Source: Kiritimatiellia bacterium (GTDB taxonomy: Bacteria > Verrucomicrobiota > Kiritimatiellia > RFP12 > UBA1067). Taken from it: a stretch of 45,930 nt of DNA. The position numbers were made by a program, and so were the translations under genes. Where the stretch lies: positions 1 to 45,930 of the forward strand of contig CAAFYT010000069.1 in NCBI GenBank assembly GCA_900767325.1, written 5' to 3'. This document shows, piece after piece, positions 306 through 45,930 of the stretch; position 1 is the first letter of the stretch, and each line of letters opens with the position of its first letter. The notes beneath the pieces are model-generated. The model did not search any database, was not told the DNA's origin, and saw nothing but the letters and a program-made list of their open reading frames with translations.

Positions 306-511
306 GTTCCCATAATTGACGAAGGTGTGTCTTGCGCCTTCCGAGATTAATGTATGACGATACTGAAAACATTGGCTAAAAACGCATTTGGGGTTGCGCG
401 GGGCGAAGTCCCGCGTGTCCTTCGCGTTGCGGTCTGTGGTCGCGGTAGAGTTTTAATTGAAAGTTAAACTGATAAGTAATGAACCACAAAACAAACAAAG
501 GAGAAAAAGCA

Positions 512-3500: not shown

Positions 3501-6500
3501 TCAACCTTACCTTTGACAATCCTGACATGATGCTCGGTAAGATTACGGTCGTAAGCTCGCGTCCGATTCGCTTTACGGCGACCAAGGCGTTGCCGAACGT
3601 CGGTCAGTTCATTACTGATGGCTGCACGGGCGGAATTGTCTATGCCTGGCCGGTTTCGGCGCTTACGACTTCCGCAGAGGGCGTGACCTACGCTGGCGGT
3701 GCTGGTACGGTTGAAACTCCGGCGACGATGAACTTCGCGGTTGCAAATGGCTCGATGACCTTGAAGGATGCGACTTATTATCTCGGCACGAGCTATTCGG
3801 GCGTGCAGTCGACCGTCAATATGATTGATGCAACGATCTTCGCTAACGGCGATATGGGCTTTGGCGTCGGTCAGGCCAATTTCAACCTCTCGGGCACGAC
3901 CAAGCTCACTTCCGAGAAGGTTGTTCTCTCGCAAGGTGGCGGTGGTCGCACCGCGAATCTGACCCTGAGCGATTCGGCGGAAGTCATCGTCACGGGTTCG
4001 TCGATTGTCGACTCCAACCAGTCCTCGATTATGTTCGGTCACTACGCCGGACCTTCAACCTTCACGATTGAGGATTCAGCGAAGTTCACCGCCGAGGACG
4101 CGCAGGTGCTCGTCGGCAAGACAGGTGGCGATCAGACGATCAACATCAATGGCGGCGTCTTCACGGCGAAGGGCATCAAGGCCTCGGCTGGTGCGACTGG
4201 CACGAATGCGCTTAACCTGAATGACGGCGAGTTGAAGCTCGGCGAGTATGGTATTACTACCTACAATGCCGCGCGTACGATTTCGGTAACCGTCGATGGC
4301 AATGCGAAGATTACCTCGACGGCGGCGATGCCGATTACGCAGGCGCTTACGATCAACGCCGATAAGACGCTGACGCTTGACGCGACGGCGGGCGACATCG
4401 TTATTTCGGGCACGGTTGTCAACAACGGCACGATCAAGGTCGTTGGCGGCAACGTCATCTTCATGCCTGGCACGGCCAACGGTACGATCGTCGAAGAGGG
4501 CGGTAAGGCGCTTTACGGCTATATCGTCTCCATCAACGATTGCGGCAAGTTCACGATTCCGGAAGGCAAGACCGCGGAGAATATCCGCCTCTTTGATGGC
4601 GCTGGTAACGTGATTCCGTTCACCGACAACAAGGATGGCACCGTCTCCTATGAGTGGAAGATCACCGGTGGCGCTTGCTGGTGGGATTACGAGTTCAATG
4701 GCAATGGCGATAATGACGGCACCGATGGCAGGGCACTCAGCTGGGATAACGATCGTCCGTTTAAGGGTGATGAATATGTAGACGGCGAGAAGGTGCACGT
4801 TCCTACGCGTCCTTGGCGTGACGTTAGTAGCTGGCCGACTACCGCGACGTTTGTGATGTATGGTACGATGCCAAGCGATGACAATAGGTATTATGTTGTG
4901 TTCGGTTCGACGACGCATGGCTTGTGCAATGCGATATTCCTTGCGACTGACAAAGTTAGCGAAGACAAGGTCGTGCTTTGCAAGGCCTACGGACGGAGCG
5001 GGACTGAGGAAGATTTGACTAAACTTTGCACGATGACCGTGCCGAATGCGCAAACCGCCGACCACCTTTATGCGTTTGTGCTCAAGAACACCGACACGCA
5101 GACTATCATCGACATCTATCTCGACGGTGAACTCCTGCAGTCCTATCCGTTTGGCGAGATCATCAATCTCGGTACCGGATTCCAGATTGCGTCTCCACAC
5201 GGCGGTCCAGTAGTTGGCTATGAACGTCCGGACGATGCTGATGAGGCACTGCTTGATTGGCTCCGCGTGTACGATGTCGAGCTAACGAAGGAGGTTCTCG
5301 AGAGGTACGCGGTTCTCTATCCGTATGTCTCGCCGAATGGCTCGTATCAGCGCACGGTGACGGAAGATGCTGATTGGTCGGCGACTGACGCGTGGACCAA
5401 GGAAGGCACCGAGCCGGCCGAGACGGCGGATGAGCCGGCGGCGGGCGCGACGGTCAAGCTTGCGATCGATAACGATGACGCGACGACGACCATCGCTATC
5501 AACCTCGCGGACGATGTGATCTACGAGGCCATTCAGATCAATGGCGACGATGTCGAGTTCGTGCTCGCCGAGGGCGAGGAGTTCGGCGGTATCGCCAAGT
5601 CGACTGGCCGCGTTACGGCGAATGCGAACATCACCTTCGCGTATAATGCGTTCTCGATGGCGGGTGCGCCGCTCACGGTCAAGCAGGGTATGACCGTAAC
5701 CTTCGATCTCTCGATGGTCGATATGACCAAGTTCTTCTCGACCCAGACGTATGACCTCACGGGCTACCTCACGCTTGAGGATGGCGCGGAAGTTACCTTC
5801 ATCGTTCCGGAAGAGCTTCACGGCCGCACGGCTGAGGCGACGATTGATCCGGTTACCAAGCACTATGTGCTGACCGTCACGGCGCCGAACTATCCGTTCG
5901 TCTATGAAGATGGAGTGTGGACTTGGGGTACGCAGGTAATTGACGAGGAAACCATCAACGCGCATCCGGAAGTTCTCCGTTCGATCAAGAGCGATCTTGA
6001 AATGGCGCTTGGCACGAGCGATTACTCGGTCGAGAACGGCGCGACCTTGACGCAGACCGATGCGAGCGCGACGGGCACGATCACGATCAACGAGGGCGGC
6101 ACCTTTGATGTTAACGGTGTAATTGATACGGCGCTCAAGATCGTCCTGAACGGCGGTTCGCTCATTAACGATGGTAGCGACATCGACGCGGGCAAGAAGC
6201 AGTATGTTTCCATTACCCAGACGGCCGCCTCGACCATCGGCGGTTCGGGTGAATTCGGCTACGTCCTCAGCGGTTATGGCGAGAACACGCTCGATCTCGG
6301 CGGCGCGACGCTGACCAAGATGGATGACAACACCTTCTCGCTCTGCAACGCGACGGTTCAGAACGGCACGTTGAAGGTAGCGGATGGTGTGCTTGCGATT
6401 GCCAACAAAGCGGTGACGATTGCGGATACCGCCACTATCGAAGGCGTGGAAGGCGCGGTTCTGAGCGTTGGATCTTCCATCAGCGACTTCACGCTCACGG

Positions 6501-9500
6501 GCGCGATTACGCTCGCGGGTGCGGGCACGTTCGGCACGATTACGCTCGACGATGCGGCGCTTGATATTGACACGGTTCGCGGCTTGACGGTTGCGGGCGA
6601 GGGCTCGATCAAGGCGACGATCACGGCGGACGAAATGGCTGGTGGCTCGGTCGTCGTCTTCACGAAGGCGGAAGACGCTACGATCAGCTCGGTCACGCTC
6701 TATGATGAGGCCGGCGAGGTGCTTTCTGGCTACACCGCCGACTACGACGAAGACGGCAACTACATCGCCAACTTCTCGGTCACCTTCACGGTTGCGTCGA
6801 TTGATGGCGCGACGGCGGCGTTTGACGAGGGCTACGTGATTGGCGAGGATGATTCGGTCACCGTTCCGTATGGTGCAACCGCGACGCTCGTCTATACGGC
6901 CAATGAGGGCAAGCTCTTCAACGATGGCAAGACCACCGTGACTGTCCTGATCGAAAACATCACCGATGCGGCCACGGCCGAGCTCACGATCGCTGCGGCA
7001 ATCGCAGATAAGTCCACGGTTGATGCAGAGGCGAAGATTGGCTCGACGCTCTATCTCACGCTCGCGGATGCGTTCGCGGTGGATGGTCAGAAGTACATCG
7101 TGCTCTTGAAGGATGTCGAGCTTACCGACTGGATCGTCGTTGATTCGGTGGCGGCGCTTGAACTTAACGGATTCACCATCAGCCAAAGCGCGTCTTGGGC
7201 GCCGGCCGAGACGTCGCACGATCACCTCTTCTGTGTCACTTACGGTGGTACGTTCAGTGTGCTGAACGCATACGAAGAGGGCGGTACGATTGATGCGACT
7301 GGCAATGGCGATCTCTATGGCGCGATCAAGATGACCAAGAAGGGTGACGTCCGTCAGGGCGAAGAACTCGCGTCGCTAACGGTCTTCAGCGGTACGATTA
7401 TCGGTAACACTGCGGCGATTAGTGGCAATGGTACTCGCCACGGCACGTCGGTTACAATTGGCGATGATTACGGTTCTACGCTGATTAAGGCGGTTGTCGC
7501 GAACGACAGCGTCGGTATCTTCAATCCGCAGGACGGCACGGTTACCATTACTGGCGGTACGATTGAAGGCGCGATGGGCATCATCATCAAGAGCGGCTCG
7601 CTCCTGATGACCGGCGGTAAGGTCGTCGCGAATGGTGAATACGCTGAGTGGGTGAAGTCCAACAACGGCTTCAATAACACTGGTGACGCCATTGAGATTG
7701 ATAACATCGGTTATCCAGGCGAGGTTGCAGAGGTTCTCATTGGTGGCGATGTGATTGTTGAGTCTGCGAATGGCGCGGCGGTTGCCTCGCGTGCGGACGG
7801 TGCCTACACCCCGATTACCGGCTTCATCGCTGGTGGTAAGTTCAAGGGTGCGATCGATACCGATACTTCGCTCATCAAGACGACTGAAACTGGCATTGGT
7901 AAGTGGGTGACTGACGAGGACGGCTACAAGGTTCCGGCGGAAGATCCTGCGATGGCCAAGATCGGCACCAAGCTCTACTTGACGCTCGCCGAGGCAGTCA
8001 CTGCGGCGACGGATAACGATGAAGTTACGCTTCTCGCAAGCTGCGCGGGCGACGGCATCAAGATCGACAAGTCGATTACGATTGACTTCGGTGGCTTCAC
8101 CTATACGGTCGACGCCAGTCTCGTTGGTTCGCCGAGCACGCAGTCGCAGGCGTTCAACCTCGTGAGGGGCAACACCATCACCTTGAAGAACGGTACGATT
8201 ACCTCGACGGTTGCGCGTATGCTCGTTCAGAACTACGCGAGCTTGACGCTCGAAGATATGACCCTCGATGGCACGAACCTCGCGGCCAAGGACGGCAAGG
8301 GCAAAGACTACGTTGCCGATACGCTCTCGAACTGCGCTGGCGATACCGTGATTACGGGTGACTCCGTCATCAAGGCGCGCGTCCTCGACGGACAGAAGAG
8401 CTTCGCGTTCGACACCTACTATCAGGCGGGTAAGTACGAGGATGCGACAGTCACGGTCGATGGCGCGACAATCAACGGCAATGTTGAGCTCGCGGGTGGT
8501 AGCTTGACGCTTACGGCTGGCACGCTCAACGGCGAGCTCGTCGAAGGCGCTAACATCGAGAAGGGCGTTGTTACCAAGGACGACGCTTTCGAGGCCGCGG
8601 CTCCGGCTGGCTACGAGTGGAAGGATGGCGTGCTTACCGCGATCTATCCGGCGGCGAAGGTTGAGCCGACGACGGTCGATGGCTTTGACTACGCGTTCAT
8701 CTACACGGCGTTGAATGATGCGCCGAAATACGACGATGCGGTTGCGTCCTTCGTCATTACGCCCACGACGGCGGTTCCGGCTGACACCATCAAGGTCGGC
8801 GGCAAGTTCGCAACGATGGGTTGGAACATCTTCAACCTCCCGGCGATTGGCGCGGGCGAGAGCTACACGATTACCGAAGCGACTTGGGCGGAGGTTAAGG
8901 ATATCTCGCCGTTCACTTGCGGCGCGGCTTCCATCGCGCTTGAGAAGGATACGGAAGTTACCCTTACCCTCAAGCTTGGCGACGATGTGATCGACACGCA
9001 GACGGTTACGCTCAAGGCGGCGAAGGTTCTCCCGACTGCGATTGTTGCGGAAGCCGAGGTTACGGGTCTCGACAAGGCGGCGACCTTCACGCTCGACAAC
9101 AAGGGCATCAGCTACGATGACTGGAACGCTGACTTCATGATCACGCTCGACAAGGATGTCGAGGCGGGTCAAATCACGCTCGGCGGTGACTATGGCGAGT
9201 ATGGTCTTGTCACGTTCCCGGCTCCGGCCTTCACGGCTGGCGAGGCCCAGGGCGTTATGGCGATGATCGGCAAGACGATCACCGTTGCCGAGCTCGACGA
9301 GTTCGTTCAGGAGTTCACCTGCGGTATCAAGAACAACACCTTCCCGACCGAGTTCGGCGTTTCGGTGCAGCTCGTGATCACCGATGGTGAGACGACGATC
9401 GACATCGGCGAGCCGTTCGAGGCGACGATCCCGGCGGCGAAGGTTCTCCCGGAGGCGTCGGTCACGCCCGTCACGGTCGAGGGTCTCGACAAGGCGGCGA

Positions 9501-10750
9501 TGTTCGGCCTCGTGGATAAGGGCGTTGGCTACGATGATTGGAACGCCGACTTCACGATCACGCTCGATCAGGATGTTGCGGCGGGTCAGATCTCGCTCGG
9601 CGGCGCCTATGGCCAGTATGGCCTCATCACGTTCCCGGCTCCAGAATTCAAGGCGGGTGTGCCGCAGAACGTCATGGCGCTCTACGGCGATAAGGTCACC
9701 GTTGCTGAGCTCGATGCCATCAAGCTCTTCGTCTGCGGCATCAAGAACAACACCTTCCCGACCGAGTTCGGTGTTTCGGTGCAGCTCGTCATCTACGATG
9801 GTGAGACGACGATCGACATCGGCGATGCGTTCGAGGCGACGATCCCGGCGGCGAAGGTTCTCCCGACGGCTTCGGTTGCGGCGACCACGCTCGAAGGTCT
9901 CGACACGGCGGCTACCTTCACGCTCGAGAGCAAGGGCATCAACTACGACGACTGGAACGCCGACTTCACGCTCACGCTCGACAAGGATGTCGAGGCGGGT
10001 CAGATCTCGCTTGGCGGAATCTATGGCGAGTATGGCCTCGTCAAGTTCCCGACTCCGGCTCTCACGGCGGGTCAGGCCTATGGCGTTATGGAGCTCTTCG
10101 GTCAGACGATTACCGTTGCCGAGCTTGCCGAGTACGTCAAGGAGTTCACCTGCGGCGTCAAGAACAACACGTTCCTTGAGAACCTCGGCGTCACGGTGCA
10201 GCTCGTGATCACCGATGGTGAGACGACGATCAAAATCGGCGATGCGTTCGAGGCGACGGTTGAAGCGGTTGAGCCGTTCGATCCGGAAGTTCCTCAGACC
10301 TACAATACGCCGGAAGCGGCGCAGGAGGCGGCTGATACGATCAACGACAACAAGCTCACCATGATCAACATCCCGACCGTTGTGACCGACAAGCAGGCCT
10401 ATGTTGACCTCTTCGAGGCGGTCGCCGAGGGAACGACGGTTACGGTGCAGCTCACGGAAGATGCCAAGGGCGAAATCGCGGAAGAGCTCAAGAATGCCGA
10501 TGCGGCGGCGACGATTCTCACGCCGGACGAGGACGGCAAGGCGACCATCATCGCGAAGCCGGGTCTCTGGTACGGCATCAAGGCCGAGGGCTCGCTCTAC
10601 GATATGCCGACTGCCGAGGGTCAGAACTGGGAGCAGGCCACCGATGACACCGTCGCGGTCAAGGTTCCGGTTGTCACCGATTCTGAAGGCAACAAGGCCA
10701 AGGCCGCGTTCTTCCAGGCGACTTGCTCGGCGAAGGCGCCGACCAAGTAA
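512..10750 (+). CDS. Giant secreted/cell-surface protein (3412 aa), adhesin-like with ConA/LamG-like and beta-helix-like modules
   Basis: Uninterrupted ORF that opens at 479. AAGGAG lies 7 nt upstream of ATG 512. Signal peptide MSKLKSLIVATLAFAASFVTGSALA. Two LamG-like domain ends (GVAIFNERLTVDEIAAYEF; LDWLRVYDVELTKEVLERY). Duplicated YDVIVY modules and AKIGxxLYLTLAxA caps, plus three C-terminal tandem repeats. Confidence 0.9.
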   Translation: MSKLKSLIVATLAFAASFVTGSALAATPVAVWSGNFAGAETGVASGKYTLKANGNTVADDGSAITISSNVGVLVDWTDRSDFSTAGNITVIVKYSDYTVGANNGAAATLWAGSATANKDIVGPFTTASTGILNNIWNGAADGRGTKENKVLPASGVFSFDYSGNTAPKGSTTYIENNGTFEEACSGNGTLYTSTKDFYGLAVGGSRNAYNNLKALTGMKILGVAIFNERLTVDEIAAYEFPERKYCVYSQGTASGWGGNCNYNNNLNAIKLPETDAAPAGTKVEVTKLEIAQSPGGNTDDNRPTRIAITVDGKTTTSADFVSGGTIPASGGNNPVKLTYNFPEGCVLTVGTQATIKWLKADGSEITSIRYAASNDATGRFLLVNNGSANYSPIALLYGYALNIRTGKVINFNIQNTGSDGSVSGKGAQTTLIGSMPEASWNNNGSTKMGTISSGIKIYNTNDGTTEDTNMSVGVGNYLSGCGNYAYYGDGGTGTTGNLPNDYYYLHTFQTYRNYGNPDSGIEASNIKLTGIPFEKYDVIVYFNGSYKDGSNEKFHKVNITCNGVSRDYTVDANGAFIAGTADWGATRQVSSAYGVNAAVFTDVATADFELKLAEKYANIAAFQVVERVIPRVTSKATISEDTNWSEIQWDPAVEDFSTTKLELTVENNAKITLDEIVTCVGLAINGVSTFDVAEDLYEDGCWEKQFLSAKSFTSTGTISFGALKEGFYGAFTQTEKGISLRAQNKEVISINIAGGSGGGAGGDSPAANLVSGTGFYGIAPTVGDSWNNINRQWQSGGNQTITIDGPNAYDGKDVIKRETMSLSATGKNTWQAGSISNPFLRGYLDDGSGVTVEVHGVPYTEYDVIVYATSDSASIALAPITINGKQYTFKNGATTEGSDVWGQGLYATPEIGKNALRVNGCTGDTITINAVRTGGRATLCGVQVINKGEVVLKEDFSATITDSIKFSDITWDGGKTFKEGQLNEVVITVGDGTDEEVNLTFDNPDMMLGKITVVSSRPIRFTATKALPNVGQFITDGCTGGIVYAWPVSALTTSAEGVTYAGGAGTVETPATMNFAVANGSMTLKDATYYLGTSYSGVQSTVNMIDATIFANGDMGFGVGQANFNLSGTTKLTSEKVVLSQGGGGRTANLTLSDSAEVIVTGSSIVDSNQSSIMFGHYAGPSTFTIEDSAKFTAEDAQVLVGKTGGDQTININGGVFTAKGIKASAGATGTNALNLNDGELKLGEYGITTYNAARTISVTVDGNAKITSTAAMPITQALTINADKTLTLDATAGDIVISGTVVNNGTIKVVGGNVIFMPGTANGTIVEEGGKALYGYIVSINDCGKFTIPEGKTAENIRLFDGAGNVIPFTDNKDGTVSYEWKITGGACWWDYEFNGNGDNDGTDGRALSWDNDRPFKGDEYVDGEKVHVPTRPWRDVSSWPTTATFVMYGTMPSDDNRYYVVFGSTTHGLCNAIFLATDKVSEDKVVLCKAYGRSGTEEDLTKLCTMTVPNAQTADHLYAFVLKNTDTQTIIDIYLDGELLQSYPFGEIINLGTGFQIASPHGGPVVGYERPDDADEALLDWLRVYDVELTKEVLERYAVLYPYVSPNGSYQRTVTEDADWSATDAWTKEGTEPAETADEPAAGATVKLAIDNDDATTTIAINLADDVIYEAIQINGDDVEFVLAEGEEFGGIAKSTGRVTANANITFAYNAFSMAGAPLTVKQGMTVTFDLSMVDMTKFFSTQTYDLTGYLTLEDGAEVTFIVPEELHGRTAEATIDPVTKHYVLTVTAPNYPFVYEDGVWTWGTQVIDEETINAHPEVLRSIKSDLEMALGTSDYSVENGATLTQTDASATGTITINEGGTFDVNGVIDTALKIVLNGGSLINDGSDIDAGKKQYVSITQTAASTIGGSGEFGYVLSGYGENTLDLGGATLTKMDDNTFSLCNATVQNGTLKVADGVLAIANKAVTIADTATIEGVEGAVLSVGSSISDFTLTGAITLAGAGTFGTITLDDAALDIDTVRGLTVAGEGSIKATITADEMAGGSVVVFTKAEDATISSVTLYDEAGEVLSGYTADYDEDGNYIANFSVTFTVASIDGATAAFDEGYVIGEDDSVTVPYGATATLVYTANEGKLFNDGKTTVTVLIENITDAATAELTIAAAIADKSTVDAEAKIGSTLYLTLADAFAVDGQKYIVLLKDVELTDWIVVDSVAALELNGFTISQSASWAPAETSHDHLFCVTYGGTFSVLNAYEEGGTIDATGNGDLYGAIKMTKKGDVRQGEELASLTVFSGTIIGNTAAISGNGTRHGTSVTIGDDYGSTLIKAVVANDSVGIFNPQDGTVTITGGTIEGAMGIIIKSGSLLMTGGKVVANGEYAEWVKSNNGFNNTGDAIEIDNIGYPGEVAEVLIGGDVIVESANGAAVASRADGAYTPITGFIAGGKFKGAIDTDTSLIKTTETGIGKWVTDEDGYKVPAEDPAMAKIGTKLYLTLAEAVTAATDNDEVTLLASCAGDGIKIDKSITIDFGGFTYTVDASLVGSPSTQSQAFNLVRGNTITLKNGTITSTVARMLVQNYASLTLEDMTLDGTNLAAKDGKGKDYVADTLSNCAGDTVITGDSVIKARVLDGQKSFAFDTYYQAGKYEDATVTVDGATINGNVELAGGSLTLTAGTLNGELVEGANIEKGVVTKDDAFEAAAPAGYEWKDGVLTAIYPAAKVEPTTVDGFDYAFIYTALNDAPKYDDAVASFVITPTTAVPADTIKVGGKFATMGWNIFNLPAIGAGESYTITEATWAEVKDISPFTCGAASIALEKDTEVTLTLKLGDDVIDTQTVTLKAAKVLPTAIVAEAEVTGLDKAATFTLDNKGISYDDWNADFMITLDKDVEAGQITLGGDYGEYGLVTFPAPAFTAGEAQGVMAMIGKTITVAELDEFVQEFTCGIKNNTFPTEFGVSVQLVITDGETTIDIGEPFEATIPAAKVLPEASVTPVTVEGLDKAAMFGLVDKGVGYDDWNADFTITLDQDVAAGQISLGGAYGQYGLITFPAPEFKAGVPQNVMALYGDKVTVAELDAIKLFVCGIKNNTFPTEFGVSVQLVIYDGETTIDIGDAFEATIPAAKVLPTASVAATTLEGLDTAATFTLESKGINYDDWNADFTLTLDKDVEAGQISLGGIYGEYGLVKFPTPALTAGQAYGVMELFGQTITVAELAEYVKEFTCGVKNNTFLENLGVTVQLVITDGETTIKIGDAFEATVEAVEPFDPEVPQTYNTPEAAQEAADTINDNKLTMINIPTVVTDKQAYVDLFEAVAEGTTVTVQLTEDAKGEIAEELKNADAAATILTPDEDGKATIIAKPGLWYGIKAEGSLYDMPTAEGQNWEQATDDTVAVKVPVVTDSEGNKAKAAFFQATCSAKAPTK
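9017..10261 (+). repeat. Three in-frame tandem repeats of 138-139 aa (417/414/414 nt) inside the giant gene
   Basis: Each unit starts GCGGCGAAGGTTCTCCC (AAKVLP...) at 9017, 9434 and 9848. Each contains DDWNADF...GQI(T/S)LGG.YG.YGL..FP...FTCG(I/V)KNNTF...VQLVI.DGETTI.IG. A degenerate fourth copy precedes them at about 8650-9016. Confidence 0.9.
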
Positions 10751-13227: not shown

Positions 13228-16044
13228 ATGAGAAAAATCGCGATGGTGGTATTGTGCGGGCTCATGGCCTTTGGTGCGTTCGCCGGAGAGGTTACCGTCG
13301 TCAAGACGTTGGACGAGTTTGCGGCCGCGCTGACGAATAAGAGCGTTACGGAAGTGCAAATCCCCTTTGGCGTGGATATCGCCATTCCGAGCGGCAAGAA
13401 GCTGACCGTCCCCGTCGCAAAGTCCGTGACGGTCGATGGACGGCTTTTGGTTATTGGTTCGCTTGTGAACAATGGCGCTGTCGCTGGCTCGGGTTCCTAC
13501 GCGACCGCCTTTACCAAGATCGTGCAAGGCGCGGTCGTTACGCCGACGAATGCCTTTGCGAGCTACCCTGCCTTCAGGTATCGCACAACGAAAACGACCT
13601 CGGTTATCGGGTCGCTTACCGGAAACAAGCCCACGTGCGCGAAGGCGCCGAAGGTCTGTTTCATCGAGGGCTTGGAGAAGTATGTCGAATCGAAGGTCTC
13701 CTCGCCGGCTGCTGCCGTTTGCACGGTCGATTCGTCGACCGCGCTCAACTCCTATGTCTCTATCGACAGCGTGCACGAGAAGCTCGCCGAGGCATTCCAC
13801 GCGGCCTATCCGAATCCGACAGCGACTCCGCCGGCGAACAAGTTCGTCGTTCTGCTGAAGGGCAGCCAATCGATCGACCAGGCCGCCCTGAGCGCGCTCA
13901 ATCCCGCTTGGACGACCGAAAAGGGTCACATCGGAAAGGGCTTTCGCGTCGATTGCCTGGCCTATGCGTTCACGATCAAGAGCCCAGTTGCGAATTCCAC
14001 GGTCTATCTCGTCAACGGCACGACGATTTCGCACGGCACGAACACCGCCTATACGAATTGGAGCACGGAATACATTATCGGCTGCACGACGAAGGCGAGT
14101 GTCGCCATTAACTGCAATTCGGCAAGCGCAACGAGCCGCGTTGAGCTTTACGACTGCAAGGACTTCGCAACGGCCAACCAGGGCTCGGCCGACTTGACTT
14201 TGAACAACAAGGGCTATTATGTCTTCACCGGCGGACCTTACACCATTCCGGAGAAAACGCTCAACCTCAGGGTCGTCGGCGGTTCCTACACGACCGATCC
14301 GACGGCACTTTGTCCGGCGGGCTACGTCGGGGAGTTCGATGGCGCGAATTACGAGGTCGTCAAGAAGAGCGTGGACTACAGCTTCTTCATCGGCGACGAG
14401 GGAGTCGAGGCGAATCGGTTCGCCACGCTTGCGGACGCGGTTCAGGCGGCGAATGGGGCAACGATCAAGCTCGCGAAGGACGCGGCGGTATCGTCCGATC
14501 TGATCGTTGGCGCGAAGGCGGTTGTCGATCTCAACGGCTTCCGGCTTTCGGGCCCCGGCGAGATCGTCGTTGCCGCCGCGGGCGATCTTACGCTTGTCGA
14601 TTCGTCCATCTACAAGGGCGCGACCGGCACGTGCGCGAACGCAATCGACGTTGCCGGCTCGCTGACGATTGCCTACGGCGCGTATTCCGGCGCGATTCGG
14701 CTGAGGGCCGGTTCGGCGGCAACGACTTACGCCGGCTCCTTCGCGCTCGCGTTCGCCATCGATCCGGGCGCGACGGCTGCTTTCAGGGGCGGCAGATTCC
14801 CGCTGTCAGTCGGGCCCTATCTCGGCGAGGGCTATCAGGAGATGAAGATCGGCTCGCAGTATTGCGTCGGGCGCAGACTTTTCGGCACGCTCACGAAGAA
14901 AGGCGGCTCCAACACGAAGGACGAGGACTTCGATGTCCGCTACGTCGGCGATTCGGCGCTTTACGAGAGCTACTTGGCGCAGCCCGCGTTCGATTCGGAT
15001 TCGGCGGCGTTCTTCGCTCACGCCGAGGCGGACTCGGCGATTTCGCCGCTCGGGAGTTTCACGATCGACGTCATCGTCAACTTCGATCGAGACATGGGCT
15101 CCAATACGCTGAAGTTCTACTACACGATCTTCGGCACGCTCTTGCCGGTGGAAATTCCGGCGAAAACGGAATATCGCCTCTTCTACCATATCATGAAGGA
15201 TTATCTCGCCGAGCTCGGCGGCTCGCAGATCCAGCTGTCGCGCTTTTTGGGGAGCGAGTTCAATAATGCTCTGCCGATTGGGATTGGCAACGAAACGAGC
15301 GCACCCGAAAACATCGGCGCGATTTGCGACATCGAGATCTGCCTCTACAACGGCAACTCCAAGGTCGTTTCGCTCGGCAAGACCAAGGTTACGCTGGGCG
15401 CGCGGGCGAATGTCGCGTACATCACGAGAAACGGCTCGCCGAAGTTCCATTCCGCGCTTTCGCTCGCGGTTCAGGCGGCGGCGGAAGGCGAGACGATCGT
15501 CTTGGCCCGCGAGAGCGCGGAGGGCGTGACGGTCGCCAAGGCGATCACGATCGACACCAAGGGCTTCGCGGTCGATGGCGTTGTCGCGGGCAAGGGATAT
15601 TCGGCTCGGGTCGAGGGCGAGAGGATCGTCTTCGCGAAGAGCGATTGGCCGGAGGAATGGGCGGATATTCCGGCGGATGACGCGGTCAAGGCGAGGTTCG
15701 CCGGGTGGCGCGCGGAGAAGGGCGCAGGAGCCGACCTCACGACGGACTCCGCCAAGCAGGCGTTCCTTCTGGACGTTGCCGCCGATGCGCCGATACCGGC
15801 GCTGAGGGTCGAGAAGATCGCGGCTGCGGAAGGCGTTGCGGAGATCGCGGTCAGCGCCGCCGGAGCCGATCTCGGGCGAATCAATGGCGTTTTCTTCGCC
15901 GAGGCGGGCGAAACGCCGGGCGAACTCAAGCCGCTGGCGCTTTCGGAAAAAGAGGTGGACTATGTCGCGGGCAAGGCGATCGTGACGTTCGTCTCCGGGC
16001 GGTTCTTCAGGGCCGCAATCGGCTTTACCGGGGCGCATCCCTGA
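13228..16044 (+). CDS. Secreted surface protein (938 aa) of unknown function
   Basis: Signal peptide MRKIAMVVLCGLMAFGAFAGE. It shares cap-like modules with the giant protein (RFATLADAVQAANGATIKLAKD...DLNGFRLSG; FHSALSLAVQAAAEGETIVLAR...DTKGFAVDG). High GC3 throughout. Confidence 0.85.
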   Translation: MRKIAMVVLCGLMAFGAFAGEVTVVKTLDEFAAALTNKSVTEVQIPFGVDIAIPSGKKLTVPVAKSVTVDGRLLVIGSLVNNGAVAGSGSYATAFTKIVQGAVVTPTNAFASYPAFRYRTTKTTSVIGSLTGNKPTCAKAPKVCFIEGLEKYVESKVSSPAAAVCTVDSSTALNSYVSIDSVHEKLAEAFHAAYPNPTATPPANKFVVLLKGSQSIDQAALSALNPAWTTEKGHIGKGFRVDCLAYAFTIKSPVANSTVYLVNGTTISHGTNTAYTNWSTEYIIGCTTKASVAINCNSASATSRVELYDCKDFATANQGSADLTLNNKGYYVFTGGPYTIPEKTLNLRVVGGSYTTDPTALCPAGYVGEFDGANYEVVKKSVDYSFFIGDEGVEANRFATLADAVQAANGATIKLAKDAAVSSDLIVGAKAVVDLNGFRLSGPGEIVVAAAGDLTLVDSSIYKGATGTCANAIDVAGSLTIAYGAYSGAIRLRAGSAATTYAGSFALAFAIDPGATAAFRGGRFPLSVGPYLGEGYQEMKIGSQYCVGRRLFGTLTKKGGSNTKDEDFDVRYVGDSALYESYLAQPAFDSDSAAFFAHAEADSAISPLGSFTIDVIVNFDRDMGSNTLKFYYTIFGTLLPVEIPAKTEYRLFYHIMKDYLAELGGSQIQLSRFLGSEFNNALPIGIGNETSAPENIGAICDIEICLYNGNSKVVSLGKTKVTLGARANVAYITRNGSPKFHSALSLAVQAAAEGETIVLARESAEGVTVAKAITIDTKGFAVDGVVAGKGYSARVEGERIVFAKSDWPEEWADIPADDAVKARFAGWRAEKGAGADLTTDSAKQAFLLDVAADAPIPALRVEKIAAAEGVAEIAVSAAGADLGRINGVFFAEAGETPGELKPLALSEKEVDYVAGKAIVTFVSGRFFRAAIGFTGAHP

Positions 16045-17191
16045 TCTTCGGCGAAGTGGGCGTCTGGGATGCGGCTTTGTCCAGCTGGAGGCGAAGGGCG
16101 TGGTCGCGGTAGAGCTGCAGGAGCCCCTGGATCGCGAGGCCGTTCTGCGCGTAGAGACGCGATGGATTGTGGTCGTGGCCGAACATGCGGCTCGCCATGA
16201 CGCGAACCGGGCGGGAGATGTCTTCGGGGGGCAGCCAATCCGGAATCGATGCGATGCGTTCCTCGGCGAGGGCGAAGGGCACGATGACGTTGCAGAGAAT
16301 GGCCGCCGCGCGGCCGCGCCCCATGTAATGCCGACCGCAAATGGCGGCGATCAGTCGGCGACACGCGCCCTTGGAGAAATCGGCGAGATCGATGGCCTCG
16401 ATCATGGGCGTTGACGTGAAGATGTGGGCGGCGTCGACTAGCCGTTTCTTCGGCAGATTGCTGGGGCGGCAGCTTTCGTAGTCCCAATCCTCGAATCCAC
16501 CGGCCGCGAGCAGGGCCTCTTCGGCGATCTTTGCGTTTCGCAGCAGGCAGGCGAGCGGCACGCGTTCGGAGACATGGCGAAACTGGGCGGAGTTCTTCTT
16601 GTAGCCGAGAGCGGTCATGACCTCTTCGTAGAAGACCTGTCGGCGCATGTTCCGTCGCGCACCCAGCCGCCCCAGGATGCGCCGCGCCTTCATCCGCAAC
16701 CGATGCTTGCCGGCCAATTGGAGCAGGCGGCGCGCGGCCTCGGGGTCGCCTGCGGTCAGCTCCGTTCGCGTACGCTCCGCGTCCGAGATGTGCGCGTAGG
16801 GATAGGCGGTCAGGTCGATCTGCTCCGGCGCGAATGCGCTCTTCGATTGCATGAAACGGCCCAGCCAGAGCGAAATCGCCTCGGGCGGGAGCGTCTTGGG
16901 AGCCGGGCCATCGTGCCAGGTCACATGGGCGATCACGTTCCGATAGCGCGGATCGGAGCCGTGCCGATGGAAGTCCCAATCGGCGGGGCAGAGGTGTATT
17001 TCGACATCGCCGACGCGTCGCCTGCCGCCGATCTCCAGAACGGCGTCCCTGAAATCAGGGCCTGCCTCAAGATTCCATTCGCCGGGGGTTATGACCTTTA
17101 CCTCGACCTCCTGCGGCGTGTAGAGCTTCGCCGGACGAAGGGCGTTGTCAAACCAGATTGCCTGGATGTGTCGTTCAGTCAGAGTTTTCAT
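16025..17191 (-). CDS. DUF2851 family protein
   Basis: MKTLTERHIQAIWFDNA...GEWNLEAGPDFRDAVLEIGG...GDVEIHLCPADWDFHRHGSDPRY matches the DUF2851 N-terminal signature as I recall it. The ATG at 17191 overlaps the recA-like stop region by 17 nt. Confidence 0.7.
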   Translation of the reverse strand: MKTLTERHIQAIWFDNALRPAKLYTPQEVEVKVITPGEWNLEAGPDFRDAVLEIGGRRRVGDVEIHLCPADWDFHRHGSDPRYRNVIAHVTWHDGPAPKTLPPEAISLWLGRFMQSKSAFAPEQIDLTAYPYAHISDAERTRTELTAGDPEAARRLLQLAGKHRLRMKARRILGRLGARRNMRRQVFYEEVMTALGYKKNSAQFRHVSERVPLACLLRNAKIAEEALLAAGGFEDWDYESCRPSNLPKKRLVDAAHIFTSTPMIEAIDLADFSKGACRRLIAAICGRHYMGRGRAAAILCNVIVPFALAEERIASIPDWLPPEDISRPVRVMASRMFGHDHNPSRLYAQNGLAIQGLLQLYRDHALRLQLDKAASQTPTSPKIRDAPR

Positions 17192-18095
17192 GGTGGGTGG
17201 TTTCGCGCGGAATGCCGCAGGAATAGAGGAGATCGAACTCGGCGTCCGCAAGGGCGGGTTGGGGCTCGGCCCTGCCGGAGGTTCCGGCCCTGCCGGCGGC
17301 TCCGGCCCTGCCGGCGGAAGTGTTCTTCACCACGCGGACGCGGGTGCGATTGCCGATGATGACGCCGGATGGAGCGCTGATCATTCCGATGCGCTGGACC
17401 TGCAGCCGACAGGCGGCGCGGAGCTTCAGGGCCTTGCCGCCGGGCGTCATTTCGGGGTTGCCGGCCAGCGCGCCGATCCGATCCCTCACCTGGTTGAGGA
17501 AAATGCAGAGCGTGTTGGATTTCGCCAGGGCCGAGGCGATCCTCCGCAACGCCTGCGACAGGATGCGCGCCTGCAAGCCGCTGGCAGGGTCGAAACCATC
17601 GATTTCGGCCTGCGGCGTGAGCGCGGCAACGGAATCGACCACGATGACGTCGACCGCACCGGATTTCGCCATCCGCTCGCAGATCGTAAGGGCTTCCTCG
17701 GCGCTGGTTGGCTGCGCGACGATGAGGTCGTCGAGATCCACGCCGATGCGTTTCGCATAGGCGGGGTCGAGAGCGTGCTCCACATCGATGTAGACGCTGG
17801 CTCCGGCCCTGCCGGTGGTTCCGGCCCTGCCGGCGGCTCCGAGCTGCTGTGCGGAGGCGATCACGCCGAGGGCGAGAGTGGTCTTGCCCGAGGATTCGTG
17901 GCCGAAGAACTCGACGATCCGCCCCCTCGGCAGTCCGCCGCTACCGAGGGCCTTGTCCAGCGGCCGGCATCCCGTGGGAATGACCTTTGGCGATTTCCTG
18001 AACGAGTCGCCCAGGTGGCCAATGGACGAGTTGCCGAATTCGCGCCGGATGAAGCCGAGCACTTCGTCGAGCGTCATGGCGAGCCGGGGGATCAT
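17175..18095 (-). CDS. recA: RecA-family recombinase core (306 aa) lacking the C-terminal domain, with two in-frame repeat insertions
   Basis: Collinear with E. coli RecA: GRIVEFFGHESSGKTTLAL, YIDVEHALDP, SGAVDVIVVDSVAALTPQAEI, NQVRDRIGALAGNPEMTPGGKALKL, TRVRVVKN. It ends about 15 aa after AEFDLLY. ATG 18095 forms an ATGA overlap with the yraN stop; an alternative ATG lies at 18077. Confidence 0.8.
   Translation of the reverse strand: MIPRLAMTLDEVLGFIRREFGNSSIGHLGDSFRKSPKVIPTGCRPLDKALGSGGLPRGRIVEFFGHESSGKTTLALGVIASAQQLGAAGRAGTTGRAGASVYIDVEHALDPAYAKRIGVDLDDLIVAQPTSAEEALTICERMAKSGAVDVIVVDSVAALTPQAEIDGFDPASGLQARILSQALRRIASALAKSNTLCIFLNQVRDRIGALAGNPEMTPGGKALKLRAACRLQVQRIGMISAPSGVIIGNRTRVRVVKNTSAGRAGAAGRAGTSGRAEPQPALADAEFDLLYSCGIPRETTHHENSD
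17263..17321. repeat. 18-nt tandem repeat GGCCCTGCCGGNGGNTCC x3 inside the recA-like gene
   Basis: Units at 17268-17285, 17286-17303 and 17304-17321. They encode SAGRAG-AAGRAG-TSGRAE, inserted where RecA has KNKIAAPFKQAEF. Confidence 0.9.
17799..17840. repeat. The same 18-nt unit x2 at a second site in the recA-like gene
   Basis: Units at 17805-17822 and 17823-17840. They encode AAGRAG-TTGRAG, inserted between AQQLG and SVYIDVEHALDP, where E. coli has REGKTCAFID. Confidence 0.9.
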
Positions 18096-18535
18096 GACTG
18101 CTCCCAGTGGACGAAACGATCGGGCATCGCGAACAGGCGCACATTGCGGATGTGGTCGATGACGGGGCTCCCGTTCTCCGGAACGCCATGGATCTCCACG
18201 ACGTCGAACCTGATCGCTCCGAGCCACCTGTTGATGCGCCGCCAGGCGTTGCAGGCCCGCAGGAGGTTCTTGCGTTTCTGGCGCGTGATGCTTCGCAGGC
18301 GGTGCGCGTATTGCGAGAAGGAGGCGTGCTGCTTGACCTCGATGAAGACCATCGTATCGCGCGGACGATCCCAGGCGATGATGTCGATCTCCAGGCGGTT
18401 GTCCCTTTCGCACGGGCGGGAGTTGCGCTCGATTATCTCGTAGCCGTGGCAACGGAGGTAGTCCGTTGCCACGCGTTCGCCCCATTTGCCGTGGGCGACG
18501 CCGATGTTTTCGGCCTTGTGCGGGCGAAGCGTCAT
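18092..18535 (-). CDS. yraN: YraN family (UPF0102) PD-(D/E)xK endonuclease-like protein
   Basis: GERVATDYLRCHGYEIIERN...EIDIIAWD...MVFIEVK is the characteristic YraN core. ATGA overlaps occur at both ends (18532-18535 and 18092-18095). Confidence 0.8.
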   Translation of the reverse strand: MTLRPHKAENIGVAHGKWGERVATDYLRCHGYEIIERNSRPCERDNRLEIDIIAWDRPRDTMVFIEVKQHASFSQYAHRLRSITRQKRKNLLRACNAWRRINRWLGAIRFDVVEIHGVPENGSPVIDHIRNVRLFAMPDRFVHWEQS

Positions 18536-19107
18536 TCGGCGGCCTCGGCTTCGCGTGCGGTGCGTTCGGGGCTCCGCTTTTCGATCAGCATGGGGATGCC
18601 GAAGCAGACGATGGAGATGGAGCCGGATATCGCCTCGCAGAGTCCGAGGGCTTCGGTCGGGCTGAACAAGATGTGCGAGAAGCGGTCCTCGCTGCCGTCC
18701 GTGGAGGTTCGGCGAAGCTCCAGCGAGTAGCCGGAATCCATGTTGGCGCAATGGTGCAGCTTGATGTGGGTCGTTGTGCGCGGGGTTCTGTGGAAGAGTC
18801 CCTTGCCGTCGTTGATCGCCTCGCATTCTCCCCGCAGAACCTGGAGGATGCCGCACAAGTCGATGAAGTTGAGCTTGACGCAGATCGCGTGCTCCCAGTC
18901 GAAGCGCGGGAACGTCGGGTTGGGGGCGTTGCGGTTGCCGATCGTCAGCTGGTTGGCGACGTTCATCATGATCGAGCCGTCGCTCGAGTCGTGCGCGGGG
19001 TGGAGAGTCAGTTGCACGGCGCAACCGGTTCCCTTGCCGTTGGCATGGTAGAACGACAGACTCGGGCGATACGTTCCGATGCGGGAGGTGTCGGGTTTTT
19101 TCTGCAT
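18532..19107 (-). CDS. Hypothetical 191-aa protein, possibly a Whirly/PUR-alpha-like ssDNA-binding fold
   Basis: ATG 19107 with a purine-rich RBS. Two successive four-strand-plus-helix patterns. FDWEHAICVKLNFIDLCGILQVL and RFSHILFSPTEALGLCEAISG resemble the Whirly segments DWSRKQVFSLSVTEIGTLVSL and IPITKAEFAVLISAFNF. The fold call is inference only. Confidence 0.6.
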   Translation of the reverse strand: MQKKPDTSRIGTYRPSLSFYHANGKGTGCAVQLTLHPAHDSSDGSIMMNVANQLTIGNRNAPNPTFPRFDWEHAICVKLNFIDLCGILQVLRGECEAINDGKGLFHRTPRTTTHIKLHHCANMDSGYSLELRRTSTDGSEDRFSHILFSPTEALGLCEAISGSISIVCFGIPMLIEKRSPERTAREAEAAE

Positions 19108-19154: not shown

Positions 19155-20705
19155 TCAAACCCAGAAGGAGTTTTCCTCGCCATCGAGTTTGCGATAGGCC
19201 AGAGCGCCGAAGATGTGCTCGTCGCGCACGGATTCGGATTCGGCGAGGTCGGCGAGCGTTCGCGCGACGCGGAGCACCTTGTCGTAGGCGCGGGCGGAGA
19301 GGTTGAGGCGTTCGATCATCCGGACGAGCCGCGAGCAGTCGGCTGCGGTGAAGCGGCAGGCGTCGGGCAGGTCGCGGCTTCTGACCTCGGCGTTGGTGTG
19401 AACGCCGGAAAGGCCTTTGTAGCGCGCGCTCTGGCGGGCGCGGGCGGCGAGCACGCGTTCGCGTATGGTGCGGCTGTCTTCGCCCCTTGCCATGACCGGC
19501 AACCGCTCGACCTCGACCGGAGGAACCTCGATCTGGATGTCGATTCGGTCGAGCAGCGGGCCCGAGACGCGGCTTTGGTACTTGATGATGGCGCTCATCG
19601 GGCAGCGGCAGGAGTGGCGGCGGTCGTTGTAGTAGCCGCAGGGACAGGGGTTCATGGCCGCGACCAGCATGAACTTGGAGGGGAAGTCGTAGGCGGCGGC
19701 GGCGCGCGACACGGCAACATGGCCGTCTTCGAGCGGCTGGCGCAGAACCTCGAGCGCGGCGCGCGGAAACTCCGCGAATTCGTCGAGGAAGAGAACTCCG
19801 CGATGCGCGAGCGAGACTTCTCCCGGCACGGGACGCGAGCCACCGCCCAGGAGGGCGATGGAGCTTACCGTGTGGTGCGGGGCGCGGAATGGACGCTTCC
19901 TGACGAAGCCCTCCACGCCTTTCGAGAGCCCGGCGACCGAATGGATGCGGGAGACCTCGATCGCCTCGTCGACGCTCAGCGGGGGGAGAATGGAGGGAAT
20001 GCGGCGCGCGAGCATCGTCTTGCCGGAGCCGGGCGAACCGATCATCAGGATGTTGTGGCCTCCCGCGACGGCGACCTCGATCGCCTTGCGCGCGTCGGTC
20101 TGGCCCTTGATGTCCGCGAAATCGTCCGCGAAATCGTCCGCGCCATCGATCAGGGCGCCGAGATCGGTGAAGCGCGGTTCGATCGTGCATTCGCCATTGA
20201 GGAACATCACCGCCTCCTGCAAGGTGCCGACGGGAATCACGTCGATGCCGGAAACGACGCTTGCCTCGCGTGCGTTTTCACACGGCACGAGGATGGCCCG
20301 CTTGCCGATGCGGCGCATTTCGAGGACCATCGGCAGAACGCCGTGGACCTTTCGGACCTCGCCGGAGAGCGCGAGCTCGCCGACCAGGGCGAATTCGTCC
20401 AGATGCTCGTTGCGGATGCGCCCGGTTGCCTTCAGGAGACTGACGGCGATCGGCAGGTCGAAACTCGGACCTTCCTTCTTCAGGTCCGCCGGGGCGAGGT
20501 TGACGGTGATGTCATATTCCATCTTCCTGGCGGCGAGGCCCTGATTCCGGAGTGCGGTCGGGATGCGATCCTTCGCCTCCTTCACCGCCGCATCGGGGAG
20601 ACCGACGATAGCGAACTGACTGACGCCGATGGAGGAATTGACCTCGATCTCGACTGCACGCGCCTCCACGCCGTAGATCGCGGCGGAATAGCATTTTGCC
20701 AACAT
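19155..20705 (-). CDS. comM: YifB/ComM family Mg-chelatase-like AAA+ ATPase
   Basis: N-terminus MLAKCYSAAIYGVEARAVEIEV. Walker A GSPGSGKTM and Walker B VLFLDEF. C-terminal region RAYDKVLRVARTLADL. AAGGAG RBS before ATG 20705. Confidence 0.9.
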   Translation of the reverse strand: MLAKCYSAAIYGVEARAVEIEVNSSIGVSQFAIVGLPDAAVKEAKDRIPTALRNQGLAARKMEYDITVNLAPADLKKEGPSFDLPIAVSLLKATGRIRNEHLDEFALVGELALSGEVRKVHGVLPMVLEMRRIGKRAILVPCENAREASVVSGIDVIPVGTLQEAVMFLNGECTIEPRFTDLGALIDGADDFADDFADIKGQTDARKAIEVAVAGGHNILMIGSPGSGKTMLARRIPSILPPLSVDEAIEVSRIHSVAGLSKGVEGFVRKRPFRAPHHTVSSIALLGGGSRPVPGEVSLAHRGVLFLDEFAEFPRAALEVLRQPLEDGHVAVSRAAAAYDFPSKFMLVAAMNPCPCGYYNDRRHSCRCPMSAIIKYQSRVSGPLLDRIDIQIEVPPVEVERLPVMARGEDSRTIRERVLAARARQSARYKGLSGVHTNAEVRSRDLPDACRFTAADCSRLVRMIERLNLSARAYDKVLRVARTLADLAESESVRDEHIFGALAYRKLDGEENSFWV

Positions 20706-20765
20706 GTTCCAAGCTCCTTTCCGTTCCTTCGGGGAACGCGGAACAGTATGGCATTTTTCCTAAGG

Positions 20766-20857
20766 GCGTGGCGTGAAGACGGCGTGAGTTTTGCGTGTGT
20801 TTTTCTTCACGCCGTCTTCACGCGCGCTTCACGCCGTCTTCACGCGCGCTTCACGCC
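20766..20857. promoter_or_regulatory. 11-bp-phased array: GCGTG x3 (20771, 20782, 20793) then CACGC x5 (20808, 20819, 20830, 20841, 20852)
   Basis: 22-nt unit CTTCACGCCGTCTTCACGCGCG x2.4 at 20805-20857, with an inverted copy at 20771-20788. It sits between the response-regulator stop (20858) and a TGcCATACT -10 (20745-20753, minus strand) upstream of comM. Confidence 0.75.
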
Positions 20858-45426: not shown

Positions 45427-45633
45427 CCCTGTACATCCCGTCATTCACTGTGACGAGCTCAAGCCCCGGGATCGTGAGTTGGGCGAACTCGCGGTGCGGG
45501 GGTTCCTTCATCCCGTAAAATAAGGGCGGAATCAACATCCCGCCCGCTCAACTGCCGAACTTAGTCTAAACGGCTGATGATTCGGTTGCCGCCGCCGAGG
45601 TGCGAATGAAGAGTGCCAAGGGTGTATGATGAA

Positions 45634-45782
45634 CGTTATATAACGGTTGTGTGCGCGATATATGACGGATGGTTGAGCGTTATAATAACTGTTGGTTTTG
45701 CGTTATATTACGGTTTCTTAGACGGTATATGACGCATTGACAAATTCTATATAATATGATAGAATGTCTTATATAACAGTTT
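45634..45782. repeat. Seven ~22-bp-phased copies of a CGTTATATAACGGTT-like box overlapping a promoter
   Basis: Copies start at 45634, 45656, 45678, 45701, 45723, 45746 (degenerate) and 45768. The core is the palindrome GTTATATAAC and variants. Confidence 0.75.
45737..45765 (+). promoter_or_regulatory. Sigma70-type promoter TTGACA-17 nt-TAGAAT with an upstream TG
   Basis: TTGACA at 45737-45742 and TGATAGAAT at 45757-45765. It is embedded in the phased box array upstream of ATG 45804. Confidence 0.6.
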
Positions 45783-45803
45783 GATCGATACCAGGAGGGA
45801 ATT

Positions 45804-45930
45804 ATGATCTATGCAAGTACGATAGGGTATGCCACGACGCCGAGCAATTCGAAGTTGCTGGAGGGCAAGGTGAAGCATATTGGACGAATCCGCCACAATA
45901 ATACGCTCACGAAGGATGTGATCATCGGGC
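45804..45930 (+). CDS. 5' end of an unknown gene (MIYASTIGYATTPSNSKLLEGKVKHIGRIRHNNTLTKDVIIG...), truncated by the window edge
   Basis: AGGAGGG RBS 4-5 nt upstream of the ATG. The frame stays open to the end of the window. Confidence 0.55.
   Translation, partial: MIYASTIGYATTPSNSKLLEGKVKHIGRIRHNNTLTKDVIIG

Follow-up and report, generated by a model that had tools for sequence, protein, structure and literature searches.

Plant Whirly proteins (WHY1, WHY2, WHY3 and PBF-2 p24; Pfam family PF08536) bind single-stranded DNA (ssDNA) with little sequence preference and hold resected DNA back from microhomology-mediated repair (PMC3245945). They have been regarded as a plant-specific or eukaryotic addition to organelle nucleoids (PMC4758235, PMC9070903, PMC3245945), and a bacterial Whirly is not among the proteins listed in a review of PC4-like folds (PMC7549692). 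The fold class itself is already known in bacteria and phages from Borrelia Pur-alpha, YdbC, the N-terminal domain of Shedu and ChmC, and at least one phage protein is already annotated automatically as Whirly. Here, we analyze gene X, located in a 45,930-nucleotide stretch of DNA (contig CAAFYT010000069.1 of GenBank assembly GCA_900767325.1; hereafter the window) from a Kiritimatiellia bacterium. Its 191-residue product is predicted to adopt the Whirly fold, and the gene lies between comM and yraN. We estimate a probability of roughly 0.55 that protein X is a divergent prokaryotic member of the Whirly superfamily serving as an ssDNA-binding accessory of a ComM/YraN/RecA module for recombination and natural transformation. 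The literature that we searched contains no description of a large bacterial and phage family with sequence-level homology to plant Whirly, nor of the fixed position of such a family between comM and yraN.

The second described system that bears on this locus is the ComM/YraN pair. In the available text of a preprint (bioRxiv 10.1101/2024.02.06.579203), YraN is a PD-(D/E)XK ssDNA endonuclease that is required for natural transformation, has co-evolved with the ComM helicase and binds it, and is suggested to nick the strand displaced in the transformation D-loop made by RecA. The authors argue that YraN must be targeted, since any ssDNA is cut. As described in that text, the system has two components, and no X-like partner is mentioned there. 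In the window, both genes are present, intact and adjoining recA, but a third conserved gene lies between them, in a frame that overlaps yraN.

Gene X is real and conserved. Direct reading of the minus strand gives an ATG at 19107, a TGA stop at 18534-18532 and a protein that begins with MQKKPD and ends with AEAAE. This translation agrees with an earlier note on the window, made from the letters alone, which had proposed the same open reading frame (ORF) and had singled out the peptides FDWEHAICVKLNFIDLCGILQVL (residues 69-91) and RFSHILFSPTEALGLCEAISGSI (residues 143-165). A program-made list gives instead a longer ORF of 552 residues that takes in X, because the frame is open upstream of X in GC-rich DNA; the start methionine of X is the same in its homologues. 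A word-indexed search of 5.8 billion proteins recovered 427 relatives. When a profile was run exhaustively against 1.84 billion cluster representatives, 593 clusters matched at E≤1e-3, 146 of them at E≤1e-30. Among 34 close relatives, 42 columns are invariant. The relatives found carry no informative name and no Pfam domain, apart from the single PF08536 score discussed below. Scans of protein X against Pfam, NCBIfam, PHROGs and PADLOC gave no match beyond a single Pfam hit, PM0188 at E 0.19, that was judged to be due to chance. Searched against PDB chains with phmmer, it gave no match, Whirly chains included, and a profile of the family found only a chance stretch of isoamylase among PDB sequences.

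A model of protein X was computed with AlphaFold2 (AF2) on a 34-sequence alignment (mean predicted local distance difference test score (pLDDT) 86.5, predicted template modelling score (pTM) 0.77). It shows two blocks of four strands plus a helix, as the earlier note had discerned by eye. According to DSSP, the first unit consists of strands 16-21, 29-36, 45-55 and 75-79 and helix 81-91, and the second of strands 104-107, 111-120, 126-135 and 141-148 and helix 150-169. The first unit contains the invariant FDW (18895-18903) and the LQVxRGExE helix/loop, and an invariant F-G is found at the end of the second. A model of P0251, a prophage relative with 37% identity, was built from a separate alignment and has the same topology (pLDDT 89.5). 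Both models follow the domain order of Whirly, β-β-β-β-α-β-β-β-β-α, with two four-stranded sheets and two helices. The internal repeat of X, as modeled, is structural only: the repeat pattern that had been read from the sequence reappears in the two AF2 units, but the two halves score 26 against each other by sequence, compared to 23±4.6 for shuffles, which is not significant.

Comparison of the X model with the PDB using Foldseek resulted in 22 matches at E≤1e-3, all of which are plant Whirly or trypanosome MRP1/MRP2. The Whirly matches are Arabidopsis and potato structures (4koo, 4kop, 4koq, 1l3a, 3n1h, 3r9y/z; WHY1/2/3 and PBF-2) that share the two-unit β4-α fold, with template modelling (TM) scores of 0.62-0.78; the best match has an E-value of 4.9e-7, and target-normalised TM reaches 0.78. 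The P0251 model returned the same list of matches, and the best match to X in a viral structure library is the UniProt entry 'Whirly transcription factor [uncultured Caudovirales phage]'. On the basis of these models, protein X is predicted to have the Whirly fold. The earlier note had called the protein Whirly/PUR-like; the Whirly half of that label stands as the best and nearly exclusive Foldseek match, while the PUR half is weaker. Human and fly PUR-alpha are a distant third to the X family models (E 1e-3 to 5e-2, TM 0.35-0.46; E 4e-3 to 5e-2 for the X model itself), and Borrelia Pur-alpha matches X weakly (E>0.2). Membership of X in the PUR-alpha family was rejected, given the weak structural match and the lack of a Pfam PurA match. 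The PUR-alpha, PUR-like and PC4-like proteins (Borrelia Pur-alpha, YdbC, the Shedu N-terminal domain) resemble X in having a PC4-like superfold, in binding single-stranded nucleic acids and in occurring in bacteria, but the bacterial ones are dimerising single-unit domains, in contrast to the two-unit chain of X. The OB-fold proteins SSB, SsbB and DprA, which commonly handle ssDNA in transformation, are comparable to X only in its proposed role, ssDNA binding in recombination, and their fold is unrelated. A replacement of the OB-fold SSB (PF00436) by X was likewise rejected: X has no Pfam SSB match and another fold, and a separate SSB gene stands beside the X relative in three loci (L052-L054).

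The second-best structural matches, MRP1/2 (E 6e-6, TM 0.52-0.72), belong with the jumbo-phage protein ChmC to the same fold class as X, a likeness known from the fold alone. They are RNA-binding tetramers with arginine/lysine-rich faces, MRP1/2 being a heterotetramer that binds guide RNA, and ChmC, an example of phage use of the Whirly fold, is built of β3-α units. MRP1/2 rank just after Whirly in both fold searches, and ChmC, a phage Whirly-fold tetramer, prefers RNA; X could similarly be an RNA-binding protein (like MRP1/2, PUR-alpha and ChmC), whose position in a recombination cluster would be an accident of this lineage. We consider this improbable, as the sequence homology detected for X is to plant Whirly, the family with which the profiles were compared, and DNA-recombination genes turn up repeatedly as neighbors both in the chromosomal comM/yraN/recA cluster and, in an unrelated setting, in phage loci with RecT, YqaJ, RusA or SSB.

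To compare the families at the sequence level, we used a diverse alignment of 75 members of the X family (A2), a narrow alignment confined to Kiritimatiellae (A1), and Whirly reference alignments (A3, A5) built from the Whirly sequences of PDB chains. Profile-profile comparison by hhalign, which had been suggested as a check of the Whirly assignment, matched A2 significantly with plant Whirly (91.6-91.7% probability, E about 8e-7, 111 columns). The real profile scores 45.0, compared to 8.8-20.7 for 30 column-shuffled Whirly profiles and 12.2 for a reversed profile. Only the diverse A2 reaches Whirly; the narrow A1 attains 2.4%. The Pfam Whirly profile PF08536 matches weakly 13 of the 75 A2 members when they are scanned singly, and one of these, P0266, exceeds the gathering score (25.9 bits, cut-off 23), while protein X itself has no PF08536 match even at E≤1. 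These profile data indicate homology of X to plant Whirly that goes beyond analogy. The lack of any Whirly/PUR/PC4-like hit, which the earlier note had named as counting against its reading, did not occur in either the structural or the profile comparison. Because P0266 passes the cut-off while A1 and protein X fail, we place the X family in the Whirly superfamily as a distant prokaryotic branch, most of whose members escape current annotation.

The hhalign alignment pairs F69-D70-W71 of X with the Y-D-W of plant Whirly, G93..E96 with G..(E/D), F105-H106 with the F-H of FFHDP, EP..GY with EP..G(H/Y)F, SPTEAL with T(K/R)AEF, and E152 with the conserved glutamate of (K/R)AEF. The positions shared by the two families are, thus, (F/Y)DW, G..E, FH, EP..G(Y/H), (A/T)E(F/A) and a terminal G, at an overall identity of only about 15%. 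The plant segments quoted in the earlier note are present in PDB chains 4koo, 4koq and 1l3a, and the register proposed there is borne out, with FDW placed on YDW and SPTEAL on T(K/R)AEF. The Kiritimatiellae clade has an unusual density of conserved histidines, cysteines and acidic residues, of which H21, E96 and H119 are kept family-wide. Such residues could represent the site of an enzyme or metal-binding protein that re-uses the fold (H21, H36, H39, D40, E96, H106, H119 and several cysteines). This is very improbable, since D70, E96, H106 and E152 are common to plant Whirly, which is not an enzyme, conservation of the cysteines and of the LHPAHD motif does not extend to the wider family, and there is no enzyme among the structural matches.

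Gene X is embedded in an operon with overlapping reading frames, in the order comM-X-yraN-recA-DUF2851. The spacer between comM and X is 47 bp. Translational coupling of X to yraN and recA had been claimed from the sequence, and both junctions are indeed ATGA overlaps: that of X and yraN (see the table below) and that of the yraN stop with the recA start (18092-18095). The X/yraN overlap in relatives is 17 nt. The linked comM and yraN genes encode a ComM with complete Pfam domains and a YraN with a UPF0102 match and the EID...EVK signature. Leaving aside a 597-bp fragment and two short contigs, L001-L048 comprise 45 close loci, which correspond to 43 species-representative genomes and two contigs; the pattern-based genome scan behind this count reaches close relatives only. 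The order comM-X-yraN is found in all of these loci whose contig is long enough, and recA follows yraN in all but three, where DUF2851 comes directly after yraN. All genomes with a taxon label are from Kiritimatiellae, or from Verrucomicrobia/Lentisphaerae in older records, and those with a named source are from rumen or gut samples. A member with 43% identity shows this gene order too, as do many metagenomic loci. Thus, the placement of X beside recombination genes, pointed out in the earlier note, is correct, and the neighborhood is kept across more than 60 loci. Variant arrangements are X-yraN-ComEC, X-DUF2851 and X..yraN. The wider window is ordinary chromosome, with genes for topoisomerase subunits, a GreA-like protein, a Mur ligase, GH2 and Fic. 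A role of X as a defence-system component was rejected in view of these surroundings and the lack of a PADLOC match.

Two of the variants deserve description in their own right. In a metagenome-assembled genome (L061:7001-9174), X and yraN overlap by 17 nt and are followed by a ComEC/Rec2-type 'Competence' protein gene instead of recA, which ties the pair to DNA uptake. In four loci without comM and yraN (L081, L084, L089, L094), DUF2851, a family of unknown function, comes directly after X. DUF2851 may be a further functional partner.

ComM and YraN are the reported helicase/nuclease pair that matures transformation D-loops, and X is for this reason proposed as a third, ssDNA-binding component. 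In Kiritimatiellae, translation of X would be coupled to that of the ssDNA endonuclease YraN, and its gene has comM, for the branch-migration helicase, on one side and yraN and recA on the other. At the D-loop made by RecA, protein X would cover ssDNA or keep hold of it, whether this is the parental strand that has been displaced or the strand coming in. YraN, which alone cuts any ssDNA, would either be offered this strand or be kept away from it by X. Unwanted annealing may be discouraged as well, in the way known for plant Whirlies in organelles. Plant Whirlies and X share a link to RecA-dependent DNA maintenance, and X might also limit microhomology-mediated rearrangement. That X binds nucleic acid, which proteins it works with and where in the process it acts are all predictions. 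The interpretation given in the earlier note is, in sum, supported in large part, as regards fold, homology and neighborhood; ssDNA binding, its functional half, is predicted.

The strict translational coupling of X to yraN also suits a different arrangement, the main rival to the ssDNA-binding role, in which X has the Whirly fold but acts through protein contacts. Without binding DNA, it would serve YraN (and ComM) as a regulatory or chaperone subunit, holding YraN inactive until the complex sits on a D-loop. YraN, as a nuclease that cuts any ssDNA, is proposed in the available preprint text to need control, and the near-neutral isoelectric point (pI) of X is unlike that of nucleic-acid binders. 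We nevertheless regard this arrangement as unlikely, because many members of the family occur without yraN (in phages, in mobile elements or beside DUF2851), and all solved structures among the significant Foldseek matches are nucleic-acid binders.

Members of the X family with 30-45% identity reside in mobile DNA. One is found in a prophage block with the order HTH-...-X-DUF1351-YqaJ-RecT-...-RusA, with ArdC nearby; another accompanies RecT on a phage-like contig, and a third lies in a phage whose other genes include a portal gene, DpnD-PcfM and PcfJ. In L052-L054, the X relative directly follows a canonical SSB gene, and one relative adjoins a 2004-residue ART-PolyVal protein. A Pfam census of 104 neighbors in loci without comM gave DUF2851 (4), PcfJ (2), HTH_3 (2), RuvC and a DnaG zinc ribbon. 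In our preferred reading, in which X is an ssDNA-binding accessory, these phage and mobile-element relatives would serve RecT/YqaJ-type recombination, or ssDNA that is coming in, in the same way.

Separately, the mobile-element relatives at L049:1284-2180 and L050:5280-11294 lie near ArdC-N/MPTase-PolyVal and the 2004-residue ART-PolyVal protein, neighbors that are typical of DNA entering cells single-stranded.

The proximity of distant members to SSB, ArdC, PcfJ, DpnD-PcfM and the giant ART-PolyVal protein, together with the X-yraN-ComEC arrangement, could also mean that X is a protection or anti-defence factor of the leading-region type, captured by the chromosome from a mobile element, which protects transforming DNA rather than acting at the D-loop. 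The databases argue against it. In addition to PADLOC and PHROGs, no match was found in INPHARED phages by tblastn with the prophage relative P0251, in PLSDB plasmids by tblastn with protein X, or in IMG/VR with a degenerate QV[FL]RGE.ESI DNA pattern or two single-protein scans. We judge this origin to be quite unlikely, and it overlaps with the ssDNA-accessory role without excluding it. Together with RNA binding and an enzymatic function, it is less likely than the role preferred here.

Several observations weigh against an ssDNA-binding Whirly role for X. The median pI of the X family is 5.9-6.6 and that of X is 6.75, compared to about 9 for the plant Whirly domain, and because of this near-neutral value nucleic-acid binding by X should be viewed with caution. 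Indirect evidence on high-affinity ssDNA binding, a trait of plant Whirly, points both ways, with the recombination genes around X and its relatives speaking for it and the pI against it. Whirly-fold proteins can also bind RNA instead, as MRP1/2 and ChmC do. The second lysine of the plant hallmark KGKAAL is required for 24-mer assembly (PMC3245945). Its possible counterpart in X, KGTG(C/S)A, matches loosely: K25, G26, G28 and A30 are conserved in the family, but the lysine at the second position is absent, and hhalign pairs the two motifs only where it extends its alignment at zero confidence. The C-terminal helix-loop-helix through which plant Whirly forms its homotetramer ('whirligig') is short, of low confidence or absent in many members. 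The X model has pLDDT values of 39-53 beyond helix 150-169, and many relatives end straight after the FG motif; from the models, a tetramerising helix-loop-helix in this family is doubtful. Many X relatives in loci without comM have unrelated housekeeping neighbors. Finally, the recA copy of the window looks degenerate from its sequence, so that in this organism the operon may work only in part, and the organism may not be the best representative of the system.

Table. Position of gene X, its structural units and the adjoining genes in the window.
Feature	Position	Strand	Basis
Gene X, predicted Whirly-fold protein, 191 aa	18532..19107 (stop codon included)	-	Translation, homologues, model
First β-β-β-β-α unit of X, residues 16-91	18835..19062	-	DSSP of model, invariant columns
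Second β-β-β-β-α unit of X, residues 104-169	18601..18798	-	DSSP of model
KGTGCA of X, residues 25-30, β1-β2 hairpin; possible counterpart of Whirly KGKAAL	19018..19035	-	Low-confidence hhalign extension
ATGA overlap of X stop and yraN start	18532..18535	-	Direct sequence reading
comM/yifB, 516 aa, upstream of X	19155..20705	-	Pfam ChlI + Mg_chelatase + Mg_chelatase_C, E 1.6e-94
yraN (UPF0102), PD-(D/E)XK nuclease family, 147 aa	18092..18535	-	Pfam UPF0102, E 1.2e-19
recA, aberrant copy, 306 aa	17175..18095	-	Pfam RecA, E 3e-85
DUF2851 gene, last conserved member of the cluster	16025..17191	-	Pfam DUF2851, E 4e-36

The recA gene is unusual in several respects. An 18-bp tandem repeat, GGCTCCGGCCCTGCCGGC, is inserted in frame at 17263-17317 and 17798-17841 (3.1 and 2.4 copies), adding AGRAG-type peptides to the protein. 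Two residues are missing from loop L1, and the sequence of loop L2 is GALAGNPEMTPGG. The entire C-terminal domain (about 65 residues) is absent, and the ATG of the DUF2851 gene (17191) lies inside the 3' end of recA. Identity of this RecA to its relatives is 66-68%, compared to 84% between two relatives, whereas the other genes of the operon are down by only 3-9 points.

Upstream of the comM-X-yraN-recA cluster, the region 20706-20857 separates comM from an OmpR-type response-regulator gene. In it, GCGTGAAG(A/C) is directly repeated five times at a period of 11 bp (20804-20857), directly after the regulator gene, and an inverted copy of 15 nt (GGCGTGAAGACGGCG / CGCCGTCTTCACGCC) is located about 20 nt from them. 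This region could be a terminator or a regulator-binding array. Repeats are also present elsewhere in the window. An AT-rich region at 45620-45790, just upstream of an ORF starting at 45805, holds five or six copies of a ∼22-bp, CGTTATATAACGGTTG-like unit, each with a TATA-centred palindrome, and looks like an operator or iteron array. Inside a 3423-residue ORF (479-10750, plus strand), a 414-bp unit is repeated 2.9 times at 9065-10258 with 79% matches; the product is presumably a repetitive surface protein.

A bolder proposal, which we offer as tentative and rather doubtful, is that X is a third subunit of ComM/YraN, a Whirly-type ssDNA clamp that marks the displaced strand for YraN, and that its family is the prokaryotic stock of the plant organellar Whirly. 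The practical reach of the system is limited because its hosts are uncultured rumen and gut Kiritimatiellae. X differs from plant Whirly in its bacterial and phage hosts and in its place inside a comM-yraN-recA operon, where it adjoins the bacterial counterparts of genes that plant Whirlies work with in RecA-dependent repair. X is a concrete candidate for the means by which YraN, which cuts ssDNA unspecifically, is directed to certain strands of a transformation D-loop or prevented from reaching them. Several hundred sequence clusters in bacteria and phages with the predicted Whirly fold and detectable homology provide a testable route to the origin of Whirly. If the proposed descent is true, Whirly would join the organelle DNA-maintenance proteins of phage or bacterial origin, and the view of Whirly as a plant-specific, 'eukaryotic' invention would be overturned.

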